Sequence record: MZ648215.1
DNA: 39,577 bases
From: Escherichia phage vB_EcoP_IMEP24
Direction: 5' to 3' (one strand)
Position numbers and translations under genes: made by a program
Notes under the pieces: model-generated
Databases searched by the model: none
What the model was told of the DNA's origin: nothing
The model's input: the letters and a program-made list of their open reading frames with translations, nothing else
Part shown: positions 933 through 38,817 of the stretch, in pieces
Layout of the letters: every line of letters starts with the position of its first letter
Numbering within the stretch: position 1 is the stretch's first letter

Positions 933-1187
933 ATGGACACTATGAAACACTTAAGCACAATCACTAATCACAATGAAATATTCGTGAACACTAAAGGTTA
1001 TGCGTGGATTCAGCTTAAAGAGATGACAGGAGCGCGTCACCGTGTGGTAGTGCGCAAGGTCTCAAGCAAGCCGTTCAGTAACTACAGTGTAGATACTGTG
1101 CGTATAGACAACGAGACCTACCTGATAGACTCGCAGATAACCGTGAGTCCTACAGCGAGCGCCTCAGCTCCTTATTTCGCTAACTGA
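933..1187 (+). CDS. Hypothetical early protein (84 aa)
   Basis: ORF in early region upstream of Ocr-like gene; no recognised similarity; weak SD so start uncertain. Confidence 0.45.
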   Translation: MDTMKHLSTITNHNEIFVNTKGYAWIQLKEMTGARHRVVVRKVSSKPFSNYSVDTVRIDNETYLIDSQITVSPTASASAPYFAN

Positions 1188-1274
1188 GAGTGATTAACTA
1201 CAGGTCGTTAGACTCATAGCGGCCTGACTGATAGTCACTAACACACACACGATTAACTTTGAGAGGATATAACT

Positions 1275-2618: not shown

Positions 2619-5300
2619 ATGAGCGTCATCTCTATTGACAAACACGACTTCTCTGATGTGTCGAACGCCATTGAGCCGTTTAACCTGCTGGCTGACCACT
2701 ATGGGCAAGACCTTGCAGTCAAGCAGCTTCAGCTTGAGCATGAGGCATACACTGAAGGTGAGCGACGTTTCATTAAGAACCTTGAGCGCCAGACCGAGCG
2801 CGGGGAACTGGCAGACAATCAGGTCGCTAAACCTCTGATGCAAACGCTGGTTCCGACCATCGCTAAGGCTTTCCGTGAGTGGCATGAAGGCCCGGAAGGT
2901 AAGTCATCGACCTCGCGTCCAAGCGTAGCGTTTACCATGCTGAGCACTGACGAGAAGGCTGTAAAAGACCGCTCTCTGCTAATCTCTGCGGAGTCTGCTG
3001 CGGTTATCATACTGAAGGTCATCCTCTCCAAGCTGGTCAAGCCTGAAGGGATACCGATAACTCCTATGGCATCCGCGATAGGTCGCACACTGGAAGATGA
3101 AATCCGCTTTGGTCGCATACGTGAGCAGGAGCAGGAGCACTTCAAGAAGACCATAGCGGAGAACCTGAAGAAACGCGCTGGCGCAAGCTACAAGAAAGCC
3201 TACATGCAGGCAGTCGAGGCGTCTATGCTTGAGCAGGGGCAACTGGCTGACGCTTGGGGGACTTGGAGTCCTACCGAGGCGGTACACGTTGGCATCAAGA
3301 TGCTTGAGATTGTCATCCAGTCCACACAACTGGTCGAGCTTAAGCGTTATGGTGCTGGCAATGCGGCGGCTGACGTTGAGATGGTCCACCTGTCAGACTT
3401 CTGGGTCAAGAAGATGGCACAACGTGGATTCAGCCTTGCGGGTATCGCACCAGTCTATCAACCTTGCGTCGTTCCACCTAAGCCGTGGACGGGTGTCGTA
3501 GGCGGTGGGTACTGGGCCAAAGGTCGCAGACCGTTACCATTGATTCGCTTAGGGTCTAAGTCTGCGGTAGCACGTTACGAAGACGTGTACATGCCTGAAG
3601 TCTATGACGCTGTGAACATCATTCAGAATACACCTTGGAAAGTTAACAAGAAGGTTCTGGACGTGGTGAACATGGTCGAGAAGCTGAACAACACGCCTAT
3701 TGATGACATCCCTCAAATGGAACCACTGAAGCCTGAGGACTATGCGGGTGAGACTGAAGAAGAACTCAAGGCATGGAAGAAAGCTGCTGCTGGTATCTAT
3801 CGCCGCGAGAAGGCCCGACAGTCACGCAGATTGTCGCTGAGTTTTATCGTCAGCCAAGCGAACAAGTTCTCGCAGTTTAAGGCTATCTGGTTCCCGTACA
3901 ACATGGATTGGCGCGGTCGCGTCTACGCTGTACCGATGTTCAACCCTCAGGGTAACGACATGCAGAAAGGTCTCCTGACTCTGGCAGTCGGAAAGCCTAT
4001 TGGCGCTGATGGTTTCAAATGGCTGAAGGTCCACGGTGCAAACTGTGCGGGTGTCGATAAAGTCACCTTCGAGGAGCGCATCAAGTGGGTGGAAGACAAC
4101 CACGACAACATCATGTCTACCGCTAAGGCCCCGATGGACAGCATTGAGTGGTGGGGTAAGTTAGACTCTCCTTTCTGCTTCCTAGCGTTCTGCTTCGAGT
4201 ATGCTGGCGTAATGCATCACGGCCTGTCTTACTCCTGCTCGTTGCCGATAGCGTTCGATGGGTCCTGCTCTGGGATTCAGCACTTCAGCGCGATGCTTCG
4301 TGACCACATCGGTGGACATGCAGTAAACCTGACGCCTTCCGGTAAGGTTCAAGACATCTACCGCATCGTGTCTGACCGCATTGAGGAGGAGCTTAAAGTC
4401 CTGCTGGTTAACGGTACGGACAACGAGATGGTCACTCACGAGGATAAGAAAACTGGTGAGATTACCGAACGTCTCAAGCTGGGGACACGAGAGCTGGCCC
4501 GGCAGTGGCTGACTTACGGTATGTCACGCAAGGTAACTAAGCGTTCGGTCATGACTCTGGCCTACGGGTCGAAAGAGTACGGATTCGCAGACCAAGTTTA
4601 CGAGGACATCGTGATGCCAGCGATTGACTCAGGGTCCGGCGCTATGTTCACTGAACCAAGCCAAGCGTCTCGCTTCATGGCTAAGATGATTTGGGAAGCT
4701 GTTAGTGTGACCGTAGTTGCTGCGGTTGACGCGATGAAGTGGCTTCAAGGTGCTGCCAAGCTGCTGGCTGCTGAAGTGAAGGACAAGAAGACTGGCGAAA
4801 TCCTGAAGCCATGTCTTCCGGTACACTGGGTCACACCTGATGGTTTCCCGGTCTGGCAGGAATACCGCAAGAAAGATACCACTCGTCTGAACCTGATGTT
4901 CTTAGGGTCATTCAACCTTCAGCCTACGGTCAACAAAGGCACGAAGAAAGAGCTGGACAAGCACAAGCAGGAGTCAGGCATTAGCCCGAACTTCGTCCAC
5001 TCACAAGATGGTAGCCACCTGCGCAAGACTGTAGTCCACACGCACCGCAAGTATGGCGTGATGTCGTTCGCAGTGATCCACGATAGCTTCGGGACCATCC
5101 CGGCTGACGCTGAGTATCTGTTCCGTGGCGTCCGTGAGACAATGGTTGAGACCTACCGCGACAACGATGTGCTGCTTGACTTCTACGAGCAGTTCGAATA
5201 CCAGCTTCACGAGAGTCAGCGCGATAAGCTGCCTGAGCTTCCGAAGAAAGGTAAACTGAATATCGAAGACATCCTGTCTTCAGACTTTGCATTCGCTTAA
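2619..5300 (+). CDS. Single-subunit DNA-directed RNA polymerase (T7 gene 1 homolog)
   Basis: 893 aa; near-collinear with T7 RNAP incl. KAIWFPYNMDWRGRVYAV, HGANCAGVDK, LPxAFDGSCSGIQHFSAMLRD, VHSQDGSHLRK, IHDSFGT, C-terminal FAFA. Confidence 0.98.
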   Translation: MSVISIDKHDFSDVSNAIEPFNLLADHYGQDLAVKQLQLEHEAYTEGERRFIKNLERQTERGELADNQVAKPLMQTLVPTIAKAFREWHEGPEGKSSTSRPSVAFTMLSTDEKAVKDRSLLISAESAAVIILKVILSKLVKPEGIPITPMASAIGRTLEDEIRFGRIREQEQEHFKKTIAENLKKRAGASYKKAYMQAVEASMLEQGQLADAWGTWSPTEAVHVGIKMLEIVIQSTQLVELKRYGAGNAAADVEMVHLSDFWVKKMAQRGFSLAGIAPVYQPCVVPPKPWTGVVGGGYWAKGRRPLPLIRLGSKSAVARYEDVYMPEVYDAVNIIQNTPWKVNKKVLDVVNMVEKLNNTPIDDIPQMEPLKPEDYAGETEEELKAWKKAAAGIYRREKARQSRRLSLSFIVSQANKFSQFKAIWFPYNMDWRGRVYAVPMFNPQGNDMQKGLLTLAVGKPIGADGFKWLKVHGANCAGVDKVTFEERIKWVEDNHDNIMSTAKAPMDSIEWWGKLDSPFCFLAFCFEYAGVMHHGLSYSCSLPIAFDGSCSGIQHFSAMLRDHIGGHAVNLTPSGKVQDIYRIVSDRIEEELKVLLVNGTDNEMVTHEDKKTGEITERLKLGTRELARQWLTYGMSRKVTKRSVMTLAYGSKEYGFADQVYEDIVMPAIDSGSGAMFTEPSQASRFMAKMIWEAVSVTVVAAVDAMKWLQGAAKLLAAEVKDKKTGEILKPCLPVHWVTPDGFPVWQEYRKKDTTRLNLMFLGSFNLQPTVNKGTKKELDKHKQESGISPNFVHSQDGSHLRKTVVHTHRKYGVMSFAVIHDSFGTIPADAEYLFRGVRETMVETYRDNDVLLDFYEQFEYQLHESQRDKLPELPKKGKLNIEDILSSDFAFA

Positions 5301-33072: not shown

Positions 33073-33090
33073 ACTATCACTATAGGAAAC
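33068..33090 (+). promoter_or_regulatory. Phage RNAP promoter (phi17-like)
   Basis: ctaaactatcactataggaaac; +1 G at 33085. Confidence 0.8.
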
Positions 33091-33136: not shown

Positions 33137-35320
33137 ATGTCCACGATTACACAATTCCCTTCAGGAAACACTCAGTACAGGATTGAGTTCGACTACCTAG
33201 CCAGAACGTTTGTTGTTGTTACGCTGGTGAATAGCTATAACCCTACCATGAACCGTGTACTGGAAGTTGGTCGAGATTACCGATTCCTTAATCCAACGAT
33301 GATTGAGATGTTGGTTGACCAATCAGGTTTCGACATCGTTCGTATTCACCGTCAGACTGGAACTGACTTAGTGGTAGACTTCAGGAATGGCTCAGTGTTG
33401 ACAGCTAGTGACCTGACCAATGCAGAGCTTCAGGCTATCCATATTGCAGAAGAAGGTCGAGACCAAACGGTTGACTTAGCGAAGGAATATGCCGATGCTG
33501 CTGGTAGCTCTGCTGGCAACGCTAAGGATAGCGAGGACGAAGCACGACGAATCGCTGCGAGTATCCAGGCAGCTGGTAAAATTGGTTATATTACCCGTCG
33601 CTCCTTCGAGAAAGGCTTCAACGTTACAACATGGAACGAGGCCCTGCTATGGGAAGAGGATGGTGATTATTACCGCTGGGATGGTACGCTTCCAAAGAAC
33701 GTTCCTGCTGGTTCAACTCCTGAATCATCTGGTGGTATTGGGCTAGGTGCGTGGGTTAGTGTTGGTGATGCTTCATTACGATCGGCTCTACAGGCAGAAG
33801 ATGGTGCAAAAAATATTGGCTCTGGTAAAAGAAAGCTGATTGATAATTTGAATGACATTAAACACAGTGGTGATTATTCAACTTTACAACAGGCGATTAA
33901 TGATACCACCTCAAGGGGTCGGGTTCTTGTTTCTCCAGGCGTATATAGCGAAAGCGTTTCAACCGGCAATGCTGACATTGAGGGTTCTGGTTATGCATCT
34001 TTATTAAAAACAGGGAGTGAAGATTATGCAATTAAAGTATTACAATCAGTGCCACACTGGGAGCGTCGAAGTATTTCAAAAATAAGCCTACAAGGAACAG
34101 CAACACCTAATTCCGTGGGGGTGCTATATGACCCGGATGATATGCTCTCTGGGAGATGGGATATCAGTTATGTAGGTATGGCTGACTTTGGTGTTTGTAT
34201 TAAAAAGCCAACTGGCAATATAGGTAATACATATCAAACTGTTAACTTCAGAGCTTCTGAGTATGGGTATCGTGCTGAAAGCGTGACTGGCATGCATTCT
34301 GGCTGCGATACATTTCGTGACTGTTATTTCCAAGGGATATCCAAATACTGTATTGATATAGTGAATGCTCAAGATGGCGGTGGATCTGTGCAAATTCAAG
34401 ATAGCATCATGGAGCAATGCACTGGTGGTGGCATAAGGATTGACTATAATAACATTGTTCCTTATACACCTATTGTTATACGAAACGTATGGTTTGAACT
34501 CATTGCTACGGCATCTACCATTGACCGCGATGGTTCTGAAGAAGTTCCGAGACAGGTTAAATTAATAAACACACCACAGGCATACGTTGAAGAGTCATAC
34601 TTAACTAATATTGAATTAATTAACTCAAACTTAATTGCGCGTAACTGTCGAATTGACACTGTTAGTTCGAATATTTACAGCATGAACGTTGACGCTAATA
34701 GTTCATTTATTGTTGAGAATCTTTATGCAGGGGGGGAAGTTGGCGGAGTCCCGATTATTAAAAGCGTTGCATCTCAATCTGGATTATTTGCGAGTAGTAA
34801 CTTAAGTTTGCGTGGAACTCCCACGGTGCAAGCTATCAAGGGGGCCATGGGGTATCATGGCACTGTACGTGCAGCAGATTTATATTCAGGGGTTGTTGGT
34901 TCTACTACGTGGACATTCCCGGGCACGGAAGAAGTAACAGCAAACTGTGTAGAAGATGGAGTGGCAATTGGTTATGGTTGTGCGGAAGTATCAATCAATG
35001 CTGGGTCATCACAGTTAAGTTCAGAAATTGCCACAATAACTGCCGGGAAGTGGTATGTATGGGGGGTTAACGCTAAACTTGTTTCTGGGACAGGAAACTT
35101 TAGATTCTCAGAATATATTTCAGCAGGTGTTATCTATACACAAGACGGCAAATGGACAAGCACTTTCGGTATTGGAAAAGCGCAATCATCAGGAACAATT
35201 CGATTGTATCTTACTGCACAAACTGACACCGTTATTAGATTGCAAAACTTTTTTATTGTTGAGTTCAATACGGAGGCTGATGCTTTGGCATTTTGTAATG
35301 CGAGAGTTGCAATAGGTTAA
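33137..35320 (+). CDS. Tail fibre / tailspike (gene 17): T7-like N-terminal anchor plus probable beta-helix receptor-binding/depolymerase-type domain
   Basis: N-terminal ~150 aa match T7 gp17 anchor (FxYLARxFVVVTL, DYRF, VDFxxGSxLxAxDL, QxxHxAEExRD); remainder unrelated to T7 fibre and AT-richer. Confidence 0.9.
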   Translation: MSTITQFPSGNTQYRIEFDYLARTFVVVTLVNSYNPTMNRVLEVGRDYRFLNPTMIEMLVDQSGFDIVRIHRQTGTDLVVDFRNGSVLTASDLTNAELQAIHIAEEGRDQTVDLAKEYADAAGSSAGNAKDSEDEARRIAASIQAAGKIGYITRRSFEKGFNVTTWNEALLWEEDGDYYRWDGTLPKNVPAGSTPESSGGIGLGAWVSVGDASLRSALQAEDGAKNIGSGKRKLIDNLNDIKHSGDYSTLQQAINDTTSRGRVLVSPGVYSESVSTGNADIEGSGYASLLKTGSEDYAIKVLQSVPHWERRSISKISLQGTATPNSVGVLYDPDDMLSGRWDISYVGMADFGVCIKKPTGNIGNTYQTVNFRASEYGYRAESVTGMHSGCDTFRDCYFQGISKYCIDIVNAQDGGGSVQIQDSIMEQCTGGGIRIDYNNIVPYTPIVIRNVWFELIATASTIDRDGSEEVPRQVKLINTPQAYVEESYLTNIELINSNLIARNCRIDTVSSNIYSMNVDANSSFIVENLYAGGEVGGVPIIKSVASQSGLFASSNLSLRGTPTVQAIKGAMGYHGTVRAADLYSGVVGSTTWTFPGTEEVTANCVEDGVAIGYGCAEVSINAGSSQLSSEIATITAGKWYVWGVNAKLVSGTGNFRFSEYISAGVIYTQDGKWTSTFGIGKAQSSGTIRLYLTAQTDTVIRLQNFFIVEFNTEADALAFCNARVAIG

Positions 35321-35332
35321 CTTGACATCCTC

Positions 35333-35357
35333 CACGCCCTAAAGGGCGGGGCTTTTC
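35333..35357 (+). terminator. Putative weak rho-independent terminator after gene 17
   Basis: CGCCC-TAAA-GGGCG hairpin followed by GCTTTTC; only four T. Confidence 0.4.
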
Positions 35358-35370
35358 GGATAATTATTGA

Positions 35371-35457
35371 TCAGAACGGGATATCGTCATCGAAGTCCAT
35401 TGGCGGCTCATTACCTCCTTGTGGGCTTTGTTGTTTTGGTGGCTGATGTTGTCGTTG
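35371..35457 (-). pseudogene. Fragment homologous to the 3' end of a bacterial ssb gene (SSB C-terminal tail), antisense to phage genes
   Basis: Minus-strand translation QRQHQPPKQQSPQGGNEPPMDFDDDIPF-stop; last 13 residues equal the recalled E. coli SSB C-terminus (SNEPPMDFDDDIPF); in-frame stop directly upstream, no OB-fold region. Confidence 0.6.
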
Positions 35458-35693
35458 CTAAAAACCATCAAATATCAAAGGCTCTGATGGTTCCCATCTC
35501 TTTACTCTGACTACTGATGACGTAACTGTTAAAGACGTTAATGTGGTTACGACCCTTACTGCTGCCTCTGTGCCATTGGAGTCCTGAACCGGGTAGAGGA
35601 TCGAATGTTGTGGAGGTAGAGGCGAACTACACGCTGACCAACGTATGGTAACAACTTTGGGTCACGGACGACCCGCTTTAAACTGGAGGTTTT

Positions 35694-35888
35694 ATGATTG
35701 AGTTAGACTTCAAGAATGAGGTCCTTAAAGCCTCTCCTATCGTCGGGACCGCTGCGGCTGATGGTGCCAGTCGGTTCTTCTTCGGACTTACACTGAACGA
35801 ATGGTTCTACGTTGCAGCTATCGCGTACACCGTTGTCCAGATTGGTGTGCTAGTCTACAAAACGATTAAAGGAGGTGGTAAAACATGA
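35694..35888 (+). CDS. Class II holin (T7 gene 17.5)
   Basis: LDFxNExxKAxPIVGT, FFGLxLNEWFYVAAIAYTVVQIG matches T7 gp17.5; RBS ggagg. Confidence 0.92.
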   Translation: MIELDFKNEVLKASPIVGTAAADGASRFFFGLTLNEWFYVAAIAYTVVQIGVLVYKTIKGGGKT

Positions 35889-36148
35889 CGCAGATGGACT
35901 TAGAGAAGTTCCTCTTAATGCTAGATACTGAACGTGCTCGACTCATGCTGCAAGACCTGCGGGATGACACTAAGCGTTCACCTCAGCTCTACAACGCCAT
36001 TGAGAAGCTACTTGCTCGTCACAACTTTGTGTTAAGCAAGGTGTCTGTGGACGAGAAGACGCTGGCTGATATGGAGGCCCTGAACGCAGAGTACGATAAG
36101 GTGCTTTCAGCGACTGAGGATAATGACACCGGGTATGGCGTTCAATAA
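35885..36148 (+). CDS. Terminase small subunit (T7 gene 18)
   Basis: FLxMLDT, RRSPQLYNAIxKLLxRH match T7 gp18; ATG overlaps holin stop. Confidence 0.85.
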   Translation: MTQMDLEKFLLMLDTERARLMLQDLRDDTKRSPQLYNAIEKLLARHNFVLSKVSVDEKTLADMEALNAEYDKVLSATEDNDTGYGVQ

Positions 36149-36204: not shown

Positions 36205-36480
36205 ATGACTAAGATAATGGAACGCAGAGCTGCCTATTATAAGCAGGTATACAAGGTGGACTTACAGACTCTAATTGGTATTCTAAAAGAGCAGGGAGGC
36301 TATGAGATATGTGGAAAGAGTATCTCTTTTGAAGGTGCAAAGGTAACAGCTCGCGTGGACCACTGCCACTCTACTGGAGCTATACGTGGTATTATATGCA
36401 ATAGGTGTAATCAGGCACTTGGTATGTTTGGAGATAACGTAGAGGGCATCTACAAGCTCTTAGCATACCTAGGCAAATAG
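36205..36480 (+). CDS. Endonuclease VII-like HNH nuclease (91 aa)
   Basis: DHCHSTGAIRGIICNRCNQALGMFGDN is the His-Me finger motif of the T4 endo VII family (DHDH..G.VRGLLC..CN..G); RBS taggaggg. Confidence 0.75.
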   Translation: MTKIMERRAAYYKQVYKVDLQTLIGILKEQGGYEICGKSISFEGAKVTARVDHCHSTGAIRGIICNRCNQALGMFGDNVEGIYKLLAYLGK

Positions 36481-38794: not shown

Positions 38795-38817
38795 ACTTAA
38801 CTATCACTATAGGGAAG
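38795..38817 (+). promoter_or_regulatory. Phage RNAP promoter (right-end phiOR-like)
   Basis: gacttaactatcactatagggaag; +1 G at 38812. Confidence 0.85.

Follow-up and report, generated by a model that had tools for sequence, protein, structure and literature searches.

Exchange of the receptor-binding domain (RBD) of tailspike proteins has been described across phage genera, including Kayfunavirus, Kagunavirus-like siphophages, Lederbergvirus (P22-like) and others (PMC10408124; also PMC11990801). Conserved motifs flanking the RBD were proposed as hotspots of recombination, and motif three, a 20-nt non-coding motif located downstream, was predicted to be a terminator and was found in only one Kayfunavirus (PMC10408124). 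We analysed the DNA behind the tailspike gene of Escherichia phage vB_EcoP_IMEP24 (IMEP24) in a window that consists of the whole 39,577-nucleotide stretch of record MZ648215.1. IMEP24 belongs to the genus Kayfunavirus (Autographiviridae, Studiervirinae), as judged from its closest annotated relatives, which are all Kayfunaviruses. As in the described exchanges (PMC10408124), its RBD recurs elsewhere, with siphophage-like contigs, an SU10-like podophage and a P22-like prophage carrying it at 89–94% DNA identity. Unlike these exchanges, however, the imported block of IMEP24 extends past the RBD into fragments of two genes of the donor's replication module, the pseudogenised 3' end of the replaced fibre gene is retained, and the right join, a 7-nt microhomology, is apparently distinct from the published 20-nt motif. 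Literature searches returned general papers on RBD exchange and no account of an ssb stub or a fibre pseudogene behind Kayfunavirus tailspikes, and for IMEP24 itself only a taxonomy listing. The patch of DNA described below is very probably a non-functional composite recombination scar from a swap of the host-recognition module, and as such it adds a new and unusually legible case to a process that has been described before, without being a novel type of element.

Locally, the genes are arranged as gp16, gene 17 (tailspike), the patch, holin, small terminase, a gene of the Endonuclease VII family, Rz and large terminase. The tailspike ORF of 727 aa, the product of which matches the 'tail fibers protein' recorded for IMEP24 with 100% identity, occupies positions 33137–35320 of the plus strand, and the holin ORF occupies 35694–35888 of the same strand, leaving a patch of 373 bp between them (35321–35693). 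When the 47-aa ORF starting with TTG is not counted, this patch ranks second among the gaps between plus-strand ORFs of the genome, behind the left end. Penshu1, a relative in which the long fibre gene is intact, has only 42 bp between fibre and holin. The initial annotation had described a gene-free patch of 373 bp at this place, and the patch proved to be real: its ORFs are only 32–47 aa in length, none of them gave a Pfam match, and none keeps its start, its frame or its length in the relatives compared. The absence of a phage promoter before the holin was likewise borne out. The promoter core CACTATAGG was found at 33078, ahead of gene 17, and next at 38805, with every match on the plus strand and with no match within the patch or on the minus strand. 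The last 42 bp of the patch (35652–35693, plus strand) are the native pre-holin spacer, near-identical throughout the Kayfunaviruses compared, Penshu1 with its intact fibre among them. This spacer contains a small conserved hairpin at about 35659–35675 and the holin Shine-Dalgarno sequence GGAGG at 35685–35689, at the equivalent of which the Penshu1 record annotates a ribosome-binding site.

The N-terminal anchor of gene 17 (33137–33780, plus strand) is of native Kayfunavirus type, with Pfam matches to PF03906 (Phage_T7_tail) and PF18668 (Tail_spike_N). The rest of the gene, from amino acid 215 to 727 and including the stop codon (33781–35320, plus strand), is an imported receptor-binding module, as judged from DNA identity to L015, L010, L009 and L008. 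L015, a P22-like E. coli prophage with the module located beside an integrase, showed 93.2% DNA identity exactly from 33781 to 35347. The identity to L010, a metagenomic siphophage-like contig from JGI, was 94.06% between 33962 and 35458 (positions 121–1617 of L010) in a single block of 1497 bp, and this block takes in the C-terminal end of the tailspike gene with its stop codon, then the spacer with the hairpin, and 89 nt at the 3' end of ssb. Other carriers of the module are the siphophage-like contig L009 (92.8%) and the SU10-like podophage L008 (89% DNA identity). Within the collection of isolate phages the best similarity to the module was only about 40% amino acid identity, and no RBD relative was found by a tblastn-confirmed search of IMG/VR. 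The tail fibre of Escherichia virus LS3 (P0002) came closest by full-length score.

The left end of the import could be placed within a few bases. Kayfunaviruses are 96–98% identical to IMEP24 up to 33775–33780 and diverge beyond this point, while the identity to the siphophages Sa179lw and ZCEC08, at a level of 77%, is confined to a motif of 115–123 nt within 33660–33780. This last stretch of about 120 nt of the anchor is common to siphophage and SU10-like tailspikes, and it encodes the end of the Tail_spike_N domain, ...GIGLGAWVSVGDASLRS (...VGDASLRS). The left breakpoint coincides with the end of the shared motif, and the P22-like allele begins at 33781. Judging from these alignments, the anchor-end motif is the probable left crossover zone, with the breakpoint at 33776–33781. 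A shared motif at 33660–33780, followed by divergence between one Kayfunavirus and another at 33775–33781, is the pattern of flanking motifs described for RBD cassette exchange (PMC10408124).

Beyond the tailspike stop codon, the left 172 bp of the patch are, from their matches, foreign DNA with coding sense on the minus strand. The first part (35321–35370) is the donor intergenic spacer, colinear with positions 1480–1529 of L010 inside the 94% block, and includes a hairpin at 35332–35351 and TTTT at 35353–35356. It is followed on the minus strand by a 3' fragment of a siphophage ssb gene (35371–35457), recognised by translation and DNA identity, that consists of the stop codon and the last 28 codons (...NEPPMDFDDDIPF, stop). 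The minus-strand translation, QRQHQPPKQQSPQGGNEPPMDFDDDIPF followed by a stop, has the make-up of an SSB C-terminus, a linker rich in Gln and Pro that leads to the acidic tip ...DFDDDIPF. The fragment lacks the OB-fold part as well as a usable start codon; a Pfam search gave no match to the SSB OB-fold domain (PF00436) for the fragment, and an in-frame TAG lies directly upstream. The intact SSB of L010 (PF00436, 131 bits) ends with ...QGGSEPPMDFDDDIPF, stop. At the DNA level the fragment is 84–91% identical to the annotated ssb 3' ends of many siphophages of about 45 kb (Jersey-, Macdonaldcamp- and Buchanan-type), including Vi II-E1, ZCEC08 and BS5, and the ssb gene of E. coli itself matches more weakly. 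The identity of the ssb tail was about 92% to L010 by hand count from the sequences and 91% to Sa179lw by blastn; the two candidate sources are thus about equally close, and the identities of sub-blocks fit a history of one step or of two alike.

The end of a second siphophage gene is located next to the ssb fragment. Positions 35458–35492 of the minus strand represent the stop codon and the last 11 codons (...PSEPLIFDGF, stop) of a gene for a 155-aa protein, identified by the match to Sa179lw: 34 nt (35459–35492) are 97% identical to positions 4120–4153 of Sa179lw (L004), which form the end of an ORF at 4119–4586 on the minus strand. An in-frame TAG (35458–35460, minus strand) divides the ssb fragment from the ...PSEPLIFDGF codons. 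In both Sa179lw and YX3973 the gene for the 155-aa protein immediately precedes an ssb stub, and IMEP24 has the two pieces in this order and in this frame as well. The OB-fold part of ssb is absent from these two phages, and the linker and tip alone remain, in frame after the stop of the 155-aa gene. IMEP24 carries this derived arrangement, less 30 nt of the Gln-rich linker.

The gene order of L010 is tailspike (plus strand; protein P0006), convergent intact SSB (PF00436), AAA_24, DUF3799 and helicase. L010 departs from IMEP24 exactly at 35459, where L010 continues into the body of ssb and IMEP24 into the Sa179lw-type gene end. In all these siphophages the tailspike gene on the plus strand converges on the ssb stretch, with a short hairpin-bearing spacer between them. 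IMEP24 repeats base for base the order of tailspike (plus), spacer and ssb (minus) at the tailspike–ssb junction of Jersey-, Macdonaldcamp- and Buchanan-type siphophages (Vi II-E1, Sa179lw and YX3973), but of ssb no more than 28 codons are kept, and of the adjoining gene 11, on a strand without a match to the phage promoter. Since no sequenced donor has both a tailspike of L010 type and an ssb stub of Sa179lw type, the history possibly involved one step or several. If the original import is preserved, its donor would have had this tailspike and this stub together; if a later re-exchange took place, the right crossover would have fallen inside a pre-existing stub.

The ssb fragment might also be thought of as expressed from the minus strand as a short SSB-tip peptide (MDFDDDIPF), serving as a decoy for host SSB-binding proteins. 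The tip is indeed identical to that of the L010 SSB (...PPMDFDDDIPF, stop), and the in-frame ATG, coding for the Met of PPMDF, has GGAGG about 12 nt upstream. This GGAGG, however, is part of the codons for QGG, which are found in intact ssb genes too, and the minus strand has no match to the phage promoter, all the matches being on the plus strand. A single sigma-70-like match was found on the minus strand, at 35390 to 35363; as it begins within the ssb fragment and downstream of the ATG at 35398–35400, it could not drive expression of such a peptide. In most other stub-bearing Kayfunaviruses the tip is wholly lost. We therefore regard the expression of a decoy peptide as extremely improbable, and take the ssb fragment as a relic of the donor.

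The right part of the patch has a different origin. By blastn and multiple alignment, the plus-strand segment 35493–35651 was identified as a pseudogene remnant of the last 55 or so codons of an ancestral tail-fibre gene of Penshu1 type. Positions 35482–35760 are 89.7% identical by blastn to 3001–3281 of Penshu1 (L001), a match that spans the last 172 nt of the fibre gene and its downstream sequence; of this match, 35482–35693 represents these 172 nt and the 42-bp holin leader. The last base of the Penshu1 fibre CDS is 3172, and its holin begins at 3215. The remnant has 1-nt deletions near 35573/4 and 35601/2, a premature TGA at 35585–35587 and the old stop TAA at 35649–35651. The intact fibre protein of Penshu1 has the C-terminus ...SDGSHLFTLTTDDGTVKDANVFTTLTATSGVVGLLNRVGGSKIVEVEANYTLTSVG, stop. 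Translation of the patch gave GSDGSHLFTLTTDDVTVKDVNVVTTLTAASVPLES followed by a stop and then, in another frame, ...GSNVVEVEANYTLTNVW followed by a stop, the frame being switched by the two 1-nt deletions. These protein-like but frame-broken peptides on the plus strand had been quoted in the initial annotation; both are present, and both align to the C-terminus of the Penshu1 fibre.

The proposal made along with them, that the patch is a decayed remnant of gene 17 left by replacement of the receptor-binding module, holds for part of the patch only. It is correct for 35493–35651, the right-hand 43%, which is homologous to the end of the Penshu1 fibre gene, but not for 35321–35492 (46% of the patch), which is siphophage-derived DNA and not gene-17 debris. 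The remnant occupies the syntenic position right before the holin leader and matches, at the nucleotide level, the 3' end of the intact Penshu1 fibre gene; it is disrupted in frame, and 172 bp of foreign DNA separate it from the live stop codon of gene 17. The last 22 or so codons of the remnant (...PEPGRG.KVVEVEANYTLTNVW, stop) are still open in several relatives, the sequences of which are too alike to separate selection from recency.

At the border between the two parts, the BLAST matches to siphophages and to the fibre gene overlap at 35482–35492, within GGCTCTGATGGTT, where 11 of 13 bases match. Sa179lw has exactly GGCTCTGATGGTT at this junction and Penshu1 has GTCTCCGATGGTT, and the join therefore lies at a perfect microhomology of 7 nt, GATGGTT, at 35486–35492 in the three-way alignment of IMEP24, Sa179lw and Penshu1. 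The same siphophage/fibre junction was found in about 43 records of Kayfunavirus type, and exact or degenerate search of IMG/VR and of the JGI metagenomes detected none. Its carriers are mostly phages of Salmonella Typhi and Typhimurium (the ST, CHRF and KE series and Seyj3-1), and also include the E. coli phages PH1061 and TH16 and the Citrobacter phage NS1.

Comparison of these relatives revealed both shared and private damage. The two 1-nt frameshift deletions are common to KE14, Seyj3-1, ST38 and PH1061, the aligned relatives that keep that part of the remnant, and the scar is therefore older than the split of these phages. As for private changes, TH16 lacks about 118 nt, KE14, Seyj3-1 and ST38 lack one further nucleotide, and PH1061 has lost the old stop. 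Many Typhi phages have internal deletions, by which the BLAST matches are split into two pieces. The stub has been kept to different lengths: IMEP24 retains 123 nt of it, PH1061 about 67 nt, the Typhi phages about 50–60 nt and TH16 34 nt. L014, a Kayfunavirus contig with a tailspike 56% identical to that of IMEP24 and with its own diverged ssb-tip bases, has lost 211 nt, and the stop-proximal bases of ssb are fused to the remnant. This fusion is exactly as expected from deletion between the copies of ATCGAA at 35389–35394 and 35600–35605 of a patch like that in the window. As the junction is shared by about 43 records and has decayed further in a different way in each lineage, the patch can be considered as inherited and neutral DNA. 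Lineage-specific decay together with unconserved ORFs reads, at the level of sequence comparison, as the signature of such DNA.

These comparisons also bear on whether the patch encodes one or more small proteins, such as a hydrophobic 47-aa product of the plus-strand ORF at 35367–35510 or a 36-aa product of the ORF at 35541–35651. ORFs of 32–47 aa are present in the patch, 'hypothetical protein' annotations are found in the equivalent region of KE14, PH1061 and ST38, and the 47-aa ORF has a hydrophobic core (LLVGFVVLVADVVV). Among close relatives, however, the ORFs of the patch vary in start, frame, length and even strand, and 118–211 nt of the region are deleted in TH16 and L014. The 47-aa ORF lies antisense to the Gln-rich linker of ssb; it has TTG as its start codon, lacks a Shine-Dalgarno sequence and is missing where the stub is shorter. 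A coding role of the patch is thus very unlikely, in agreement with its being a scar.

Transcription by T7-type RNA polymerase terminates at a stable hairpin followed by a U-run, or at a class II signal, ATCTGTT. Direct reading of the sequence detected no ATCTGTT in the patch. The hairpin, CCACGCCC-TAAA-GGGCGGGG at 35332–35351, is located 12 nt past the tailspike stop and is followed by CTTTT, in essential agreement with the hairpin and short T-run at 35333–35357 noted in the initial annotation. Like an intrinsic terminator after a late structural gene, it is a GC-rich stem-loop that closely follows the stop codon and has T residues on its 3' side. The stem is, however, short and imperfect (5 bp perfect; 7 bp, or 5 + 2, with one mismatch), whereas the counterpart in L010 is a perfect 8-bp stem. 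The folding energy of −14.3 kcal/mol in a context of 55 nt corresponds to z = −0.97, unremarkable for its composition. The hairpin was not called by a terminator scan for both a hairpin and a T-run, because its T-run is too short: the sequence 3' of the stem is CTTTTCGG, with four T, against a threshold of at least five T in the 8 nt after the stem. Termination at this hairpin, if any, may reasonably be taken as leaky, as the initial annotation had supposed.

It may still be asked if the hairpin works as a partial terminator or a 3'-end stabiliser that balances tailspike mRNA against the mRNA of holin and terminase; part of the patch would then be regulatory. Its position is kept in the donors, with some GC hairpin there in each siphophage, and one compensatory G:C to A:T difference was found between the hairpins of IMEP24 and L010. 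From this compensatory change, the donors may use the hairpin as a genuine element, and a minor effect is possible in IMEP24, for example on partial termination or on protection of the 3' end. A better terminator-like hairpin with T-run is present at the equivalent place of KE14, Seyj3-1 and ST38, and a terminator-like motif has been reported downstream of other tailspike genes (PMC10408124). Against such a role stand the weak stem, the four T, the ordinary z-score and the negative scan, and phages of Penshu1 type manage without such an element. Strong termination is excluded because essential late genes lie downstream, without a promoter of their own before 38805, and need read-through. A regulatory role of the hairpin in IMEP24 is therefore unlikely, though less so than a coding role of the patch. 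An exact search of IMG/VR for the hairpin gave no match. Separately, two 40-nt plasmid matches to the hairpin region, one in an E. coli IncF plasmid and the other in an Allochromatium plasmid, were found in unrelated and unannotated contexts and were set aside as noise.

A structured RNA had been named in the initial annotation as the alternative to a decayed gene. Transcription of the patch within the late operon would be expected, and several local hairpins can be drawn. Nevertheless, the minimum free energy of the whole patch gave z = −0.99, with 20 of 100 shuffled sequences folding equally well, and the hairpins of sub-regions (the main hairpin on both strands and the pre-holin hairpin) gave z between −0.66 and −1.02. 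With z-scores in this range for both the patch and its sub-regions, there is no structural signal. An Rfam search of 35000–36000 on both strands with a permissive E-value detected only HgcC on the minus strand, at 24.2 bits against a threshold of 50 bits, which was treated as a chance match; no family thus came above threshold. Furthermore, every segment of the patch is accounted for as a fragment of coding sequence, from three genes and two strands, and large parts of it are deleted in relatives. That the patch acts as a structured non-coding RNA is accordingly unsupported and highly improbable.

Taking together the homologies and their colinearity, the breakpoints, the shared and lineage-specific decay, and the lack of promoters, of conserved ORFs and of unusual RNA structure, we infer the following course of events for the scar. 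A Kayfunavirus ancestor would have carried a tail fibre of Penshu1 type, and everything past ...VGDASLRS would have been replaced by the tailspike module of a siphophage of about 45 kb. In such siphophages the tailspike gene converges on a block of replication genes, and the imported block would have overshot the tailspike stop, bringing along the donor hairpin together with the ssb 3' end and 34 nt of the gene beyond it. The donor stub was presumably in the derived arrangement of Sa179lw and YX3973, with ssb already reduced to linker and tip. On the left side, a homology-guided crossover in the conserved anchor-end motif is suggested; on the right side, an illegitimate, microhomology-mediated join to the old fibre gene at the 7-nt GATGGTT. 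The imported segment would then be 33781–35492, and the last 55 or so codons of the old fibre would have been stranded and have since decayed. The number of events may have been one or more, as noted above.

At present, the phage RNA polymerase would read through the patch from the gene-17 promoter, allowing expression of holin, terminase and the genes beyond. Such read-through is presumed because no promoter is located before 38805 and because holin, terminase and later genes need to be expressed. The native 42-bp holin leader with its ribosome-binding site is unchanged, and the ssb fragment, which has no usable start codon, is on the strand without a match to the phage promoter. The patch itself probably lacks any function.

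A further role may be suggested for the DNA at the two ends of the module. The siphophage-derived stub and the ...GDASLRS motif could serve as two homology arms for repeated swaps of receptor-binding cassettes with siphophages of which the tailspike abuts ssb. In line with this idea, the right junction is fixed, but the length of the stub and the allele of the tailspike vary among lineages; the colinearity of IMEP24 with siphophages extends to the end of the ssb tail; and L014, with its diverged tailspike, has ssb-tip bases of its own. ST38, Seyj3-1, TH16 and PH1061 have only the anchor motif and the shortened stub in common with the siphophages compared, with no colinearity through the ssb tail, a result that speaks neither for nor against recurrent crossover in the stub. 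Recurrent use of the stub as a homology arm is put forward as a tentative possibility, less probable than its being a passive remnant of the scar.

The scar keeps a record of a switch of host range, in which both partners can be recognised by kind: the donor as a small siphophage in which tailspike and ssb converge as in Sa179lw, and the replaced fibre as one of Penshu1 type. It gives both breakpoints to within a few bases, and the transfer appears to have been guided by homology at the left end and mediated by microhomology at the right end. Among related phages of Salmonella Typhi and E. coli that are candidates for therapy, several annotations of a 'hypothetical protein' are probably artefacts. 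The segment 35321–35651 is probably deletable, or usable as a landing site, in the engineering of tailspike swaps in Kayfunaviruses. If the stub is a recurrent homology arm, it would help to explain the free exchange of RBDs between this subclade of Kayfunaviruses and siphophages.

The ssb tail found in the stub, the siphophage-derived segment that also carries the end of the next gene, has a counterpart in the siphophages Sa179lw (L004) and YX3973 (L005), in which a reduced ssb locus was recognized from the reading frames on the minus strand (4001-4586 and 4001-4592, respectively). At this locus, only the Gln/Pro-rich linker and the ...NEPPMDFDDDIPF tip of ssb are left, and both are placed in frame and immediately 3' of the TAA that terminates a gene of 155 codons' product length (155 aa), which is annotated as 'putative type III restriction endonuclease' and gave no Pfam match. 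As judged from this arrangement, the linker and tip could be a deletion scar; alternatively, they could represent a read-through extension that adds an SSB-type tip to the 155-aa protein.

In the Salmonella Kayfunaviruses KE14 (L002, approximately 960-1000), Seyj3-1 (L012) and ST38 (L011), the left end of the stub is ACCCGCTTCGGTGGGTTTTGTTGTTTTT, forming a UUCG-loop hairpin followed by a T-run, which in Seyj3-1 and ST38 lies directly past the tailspike stop. This hairpin looks more terminator-like than that of the window, and appears to be made in part from former ssb-linker sequence. A sub-threshold Rfam match to HgcC on the minus strand of the window (35309-35409; 24.2 bits against the gathering score of 50 bits; E = 0.003), overlapping both the patch hairpin and the ssb tip, was taken as chance. 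KE14 (1062-1196, plus strand), the Kayfunavirus PH1061 (L003, 3048-3224, plus strand) and ST38 (3519-3710, minus strand) each have a CDS annotated as 'hypothetical protein' that is located wholly within the stub and the fibre remnant, the decayed 3' end of the old tail-fibre gene. These CDSs are not conserved from genome to genome, and they are probably annotation artefacts.

Near the holin gene, a small plus-strand hairpin (GGGTC-ACGGAC-GACCC, 35659-35675) was found 10 nt upstream of the holin Shine-Dalgarno sequence. Every Kayfunavirus in the comparison, Penshu1 among them, has kept it, and it varies only in the loop (A/C); its folding energy is not unusual (z = -0.66). Further downstream, a plus-strand gene of the Endonuclease-VII family (36205-36480; 91 aa; PF02945, 54 bits) is flanked by small terminase and Rz. 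This interval is only about 100 bp in Penshu1, KE14 and PH1061, and the same site in another Kayfunavirus contig (L014) carries a different gene, HNH_3 of 134 aa. The site looks like an insertion hotspot for homing endonucleases.

An E. coli prophage sequence (L015, 2501-4460) also carries the receptor-binding module of the window, joined there to a head-binding anchor of the P22 type and adjoining the prophage integrase. The DNA identity is 93% from 33781 to 27 nt beyond the tailspike stop. The specificity module is therefore in circulation between temperate and strictly lytic phages.
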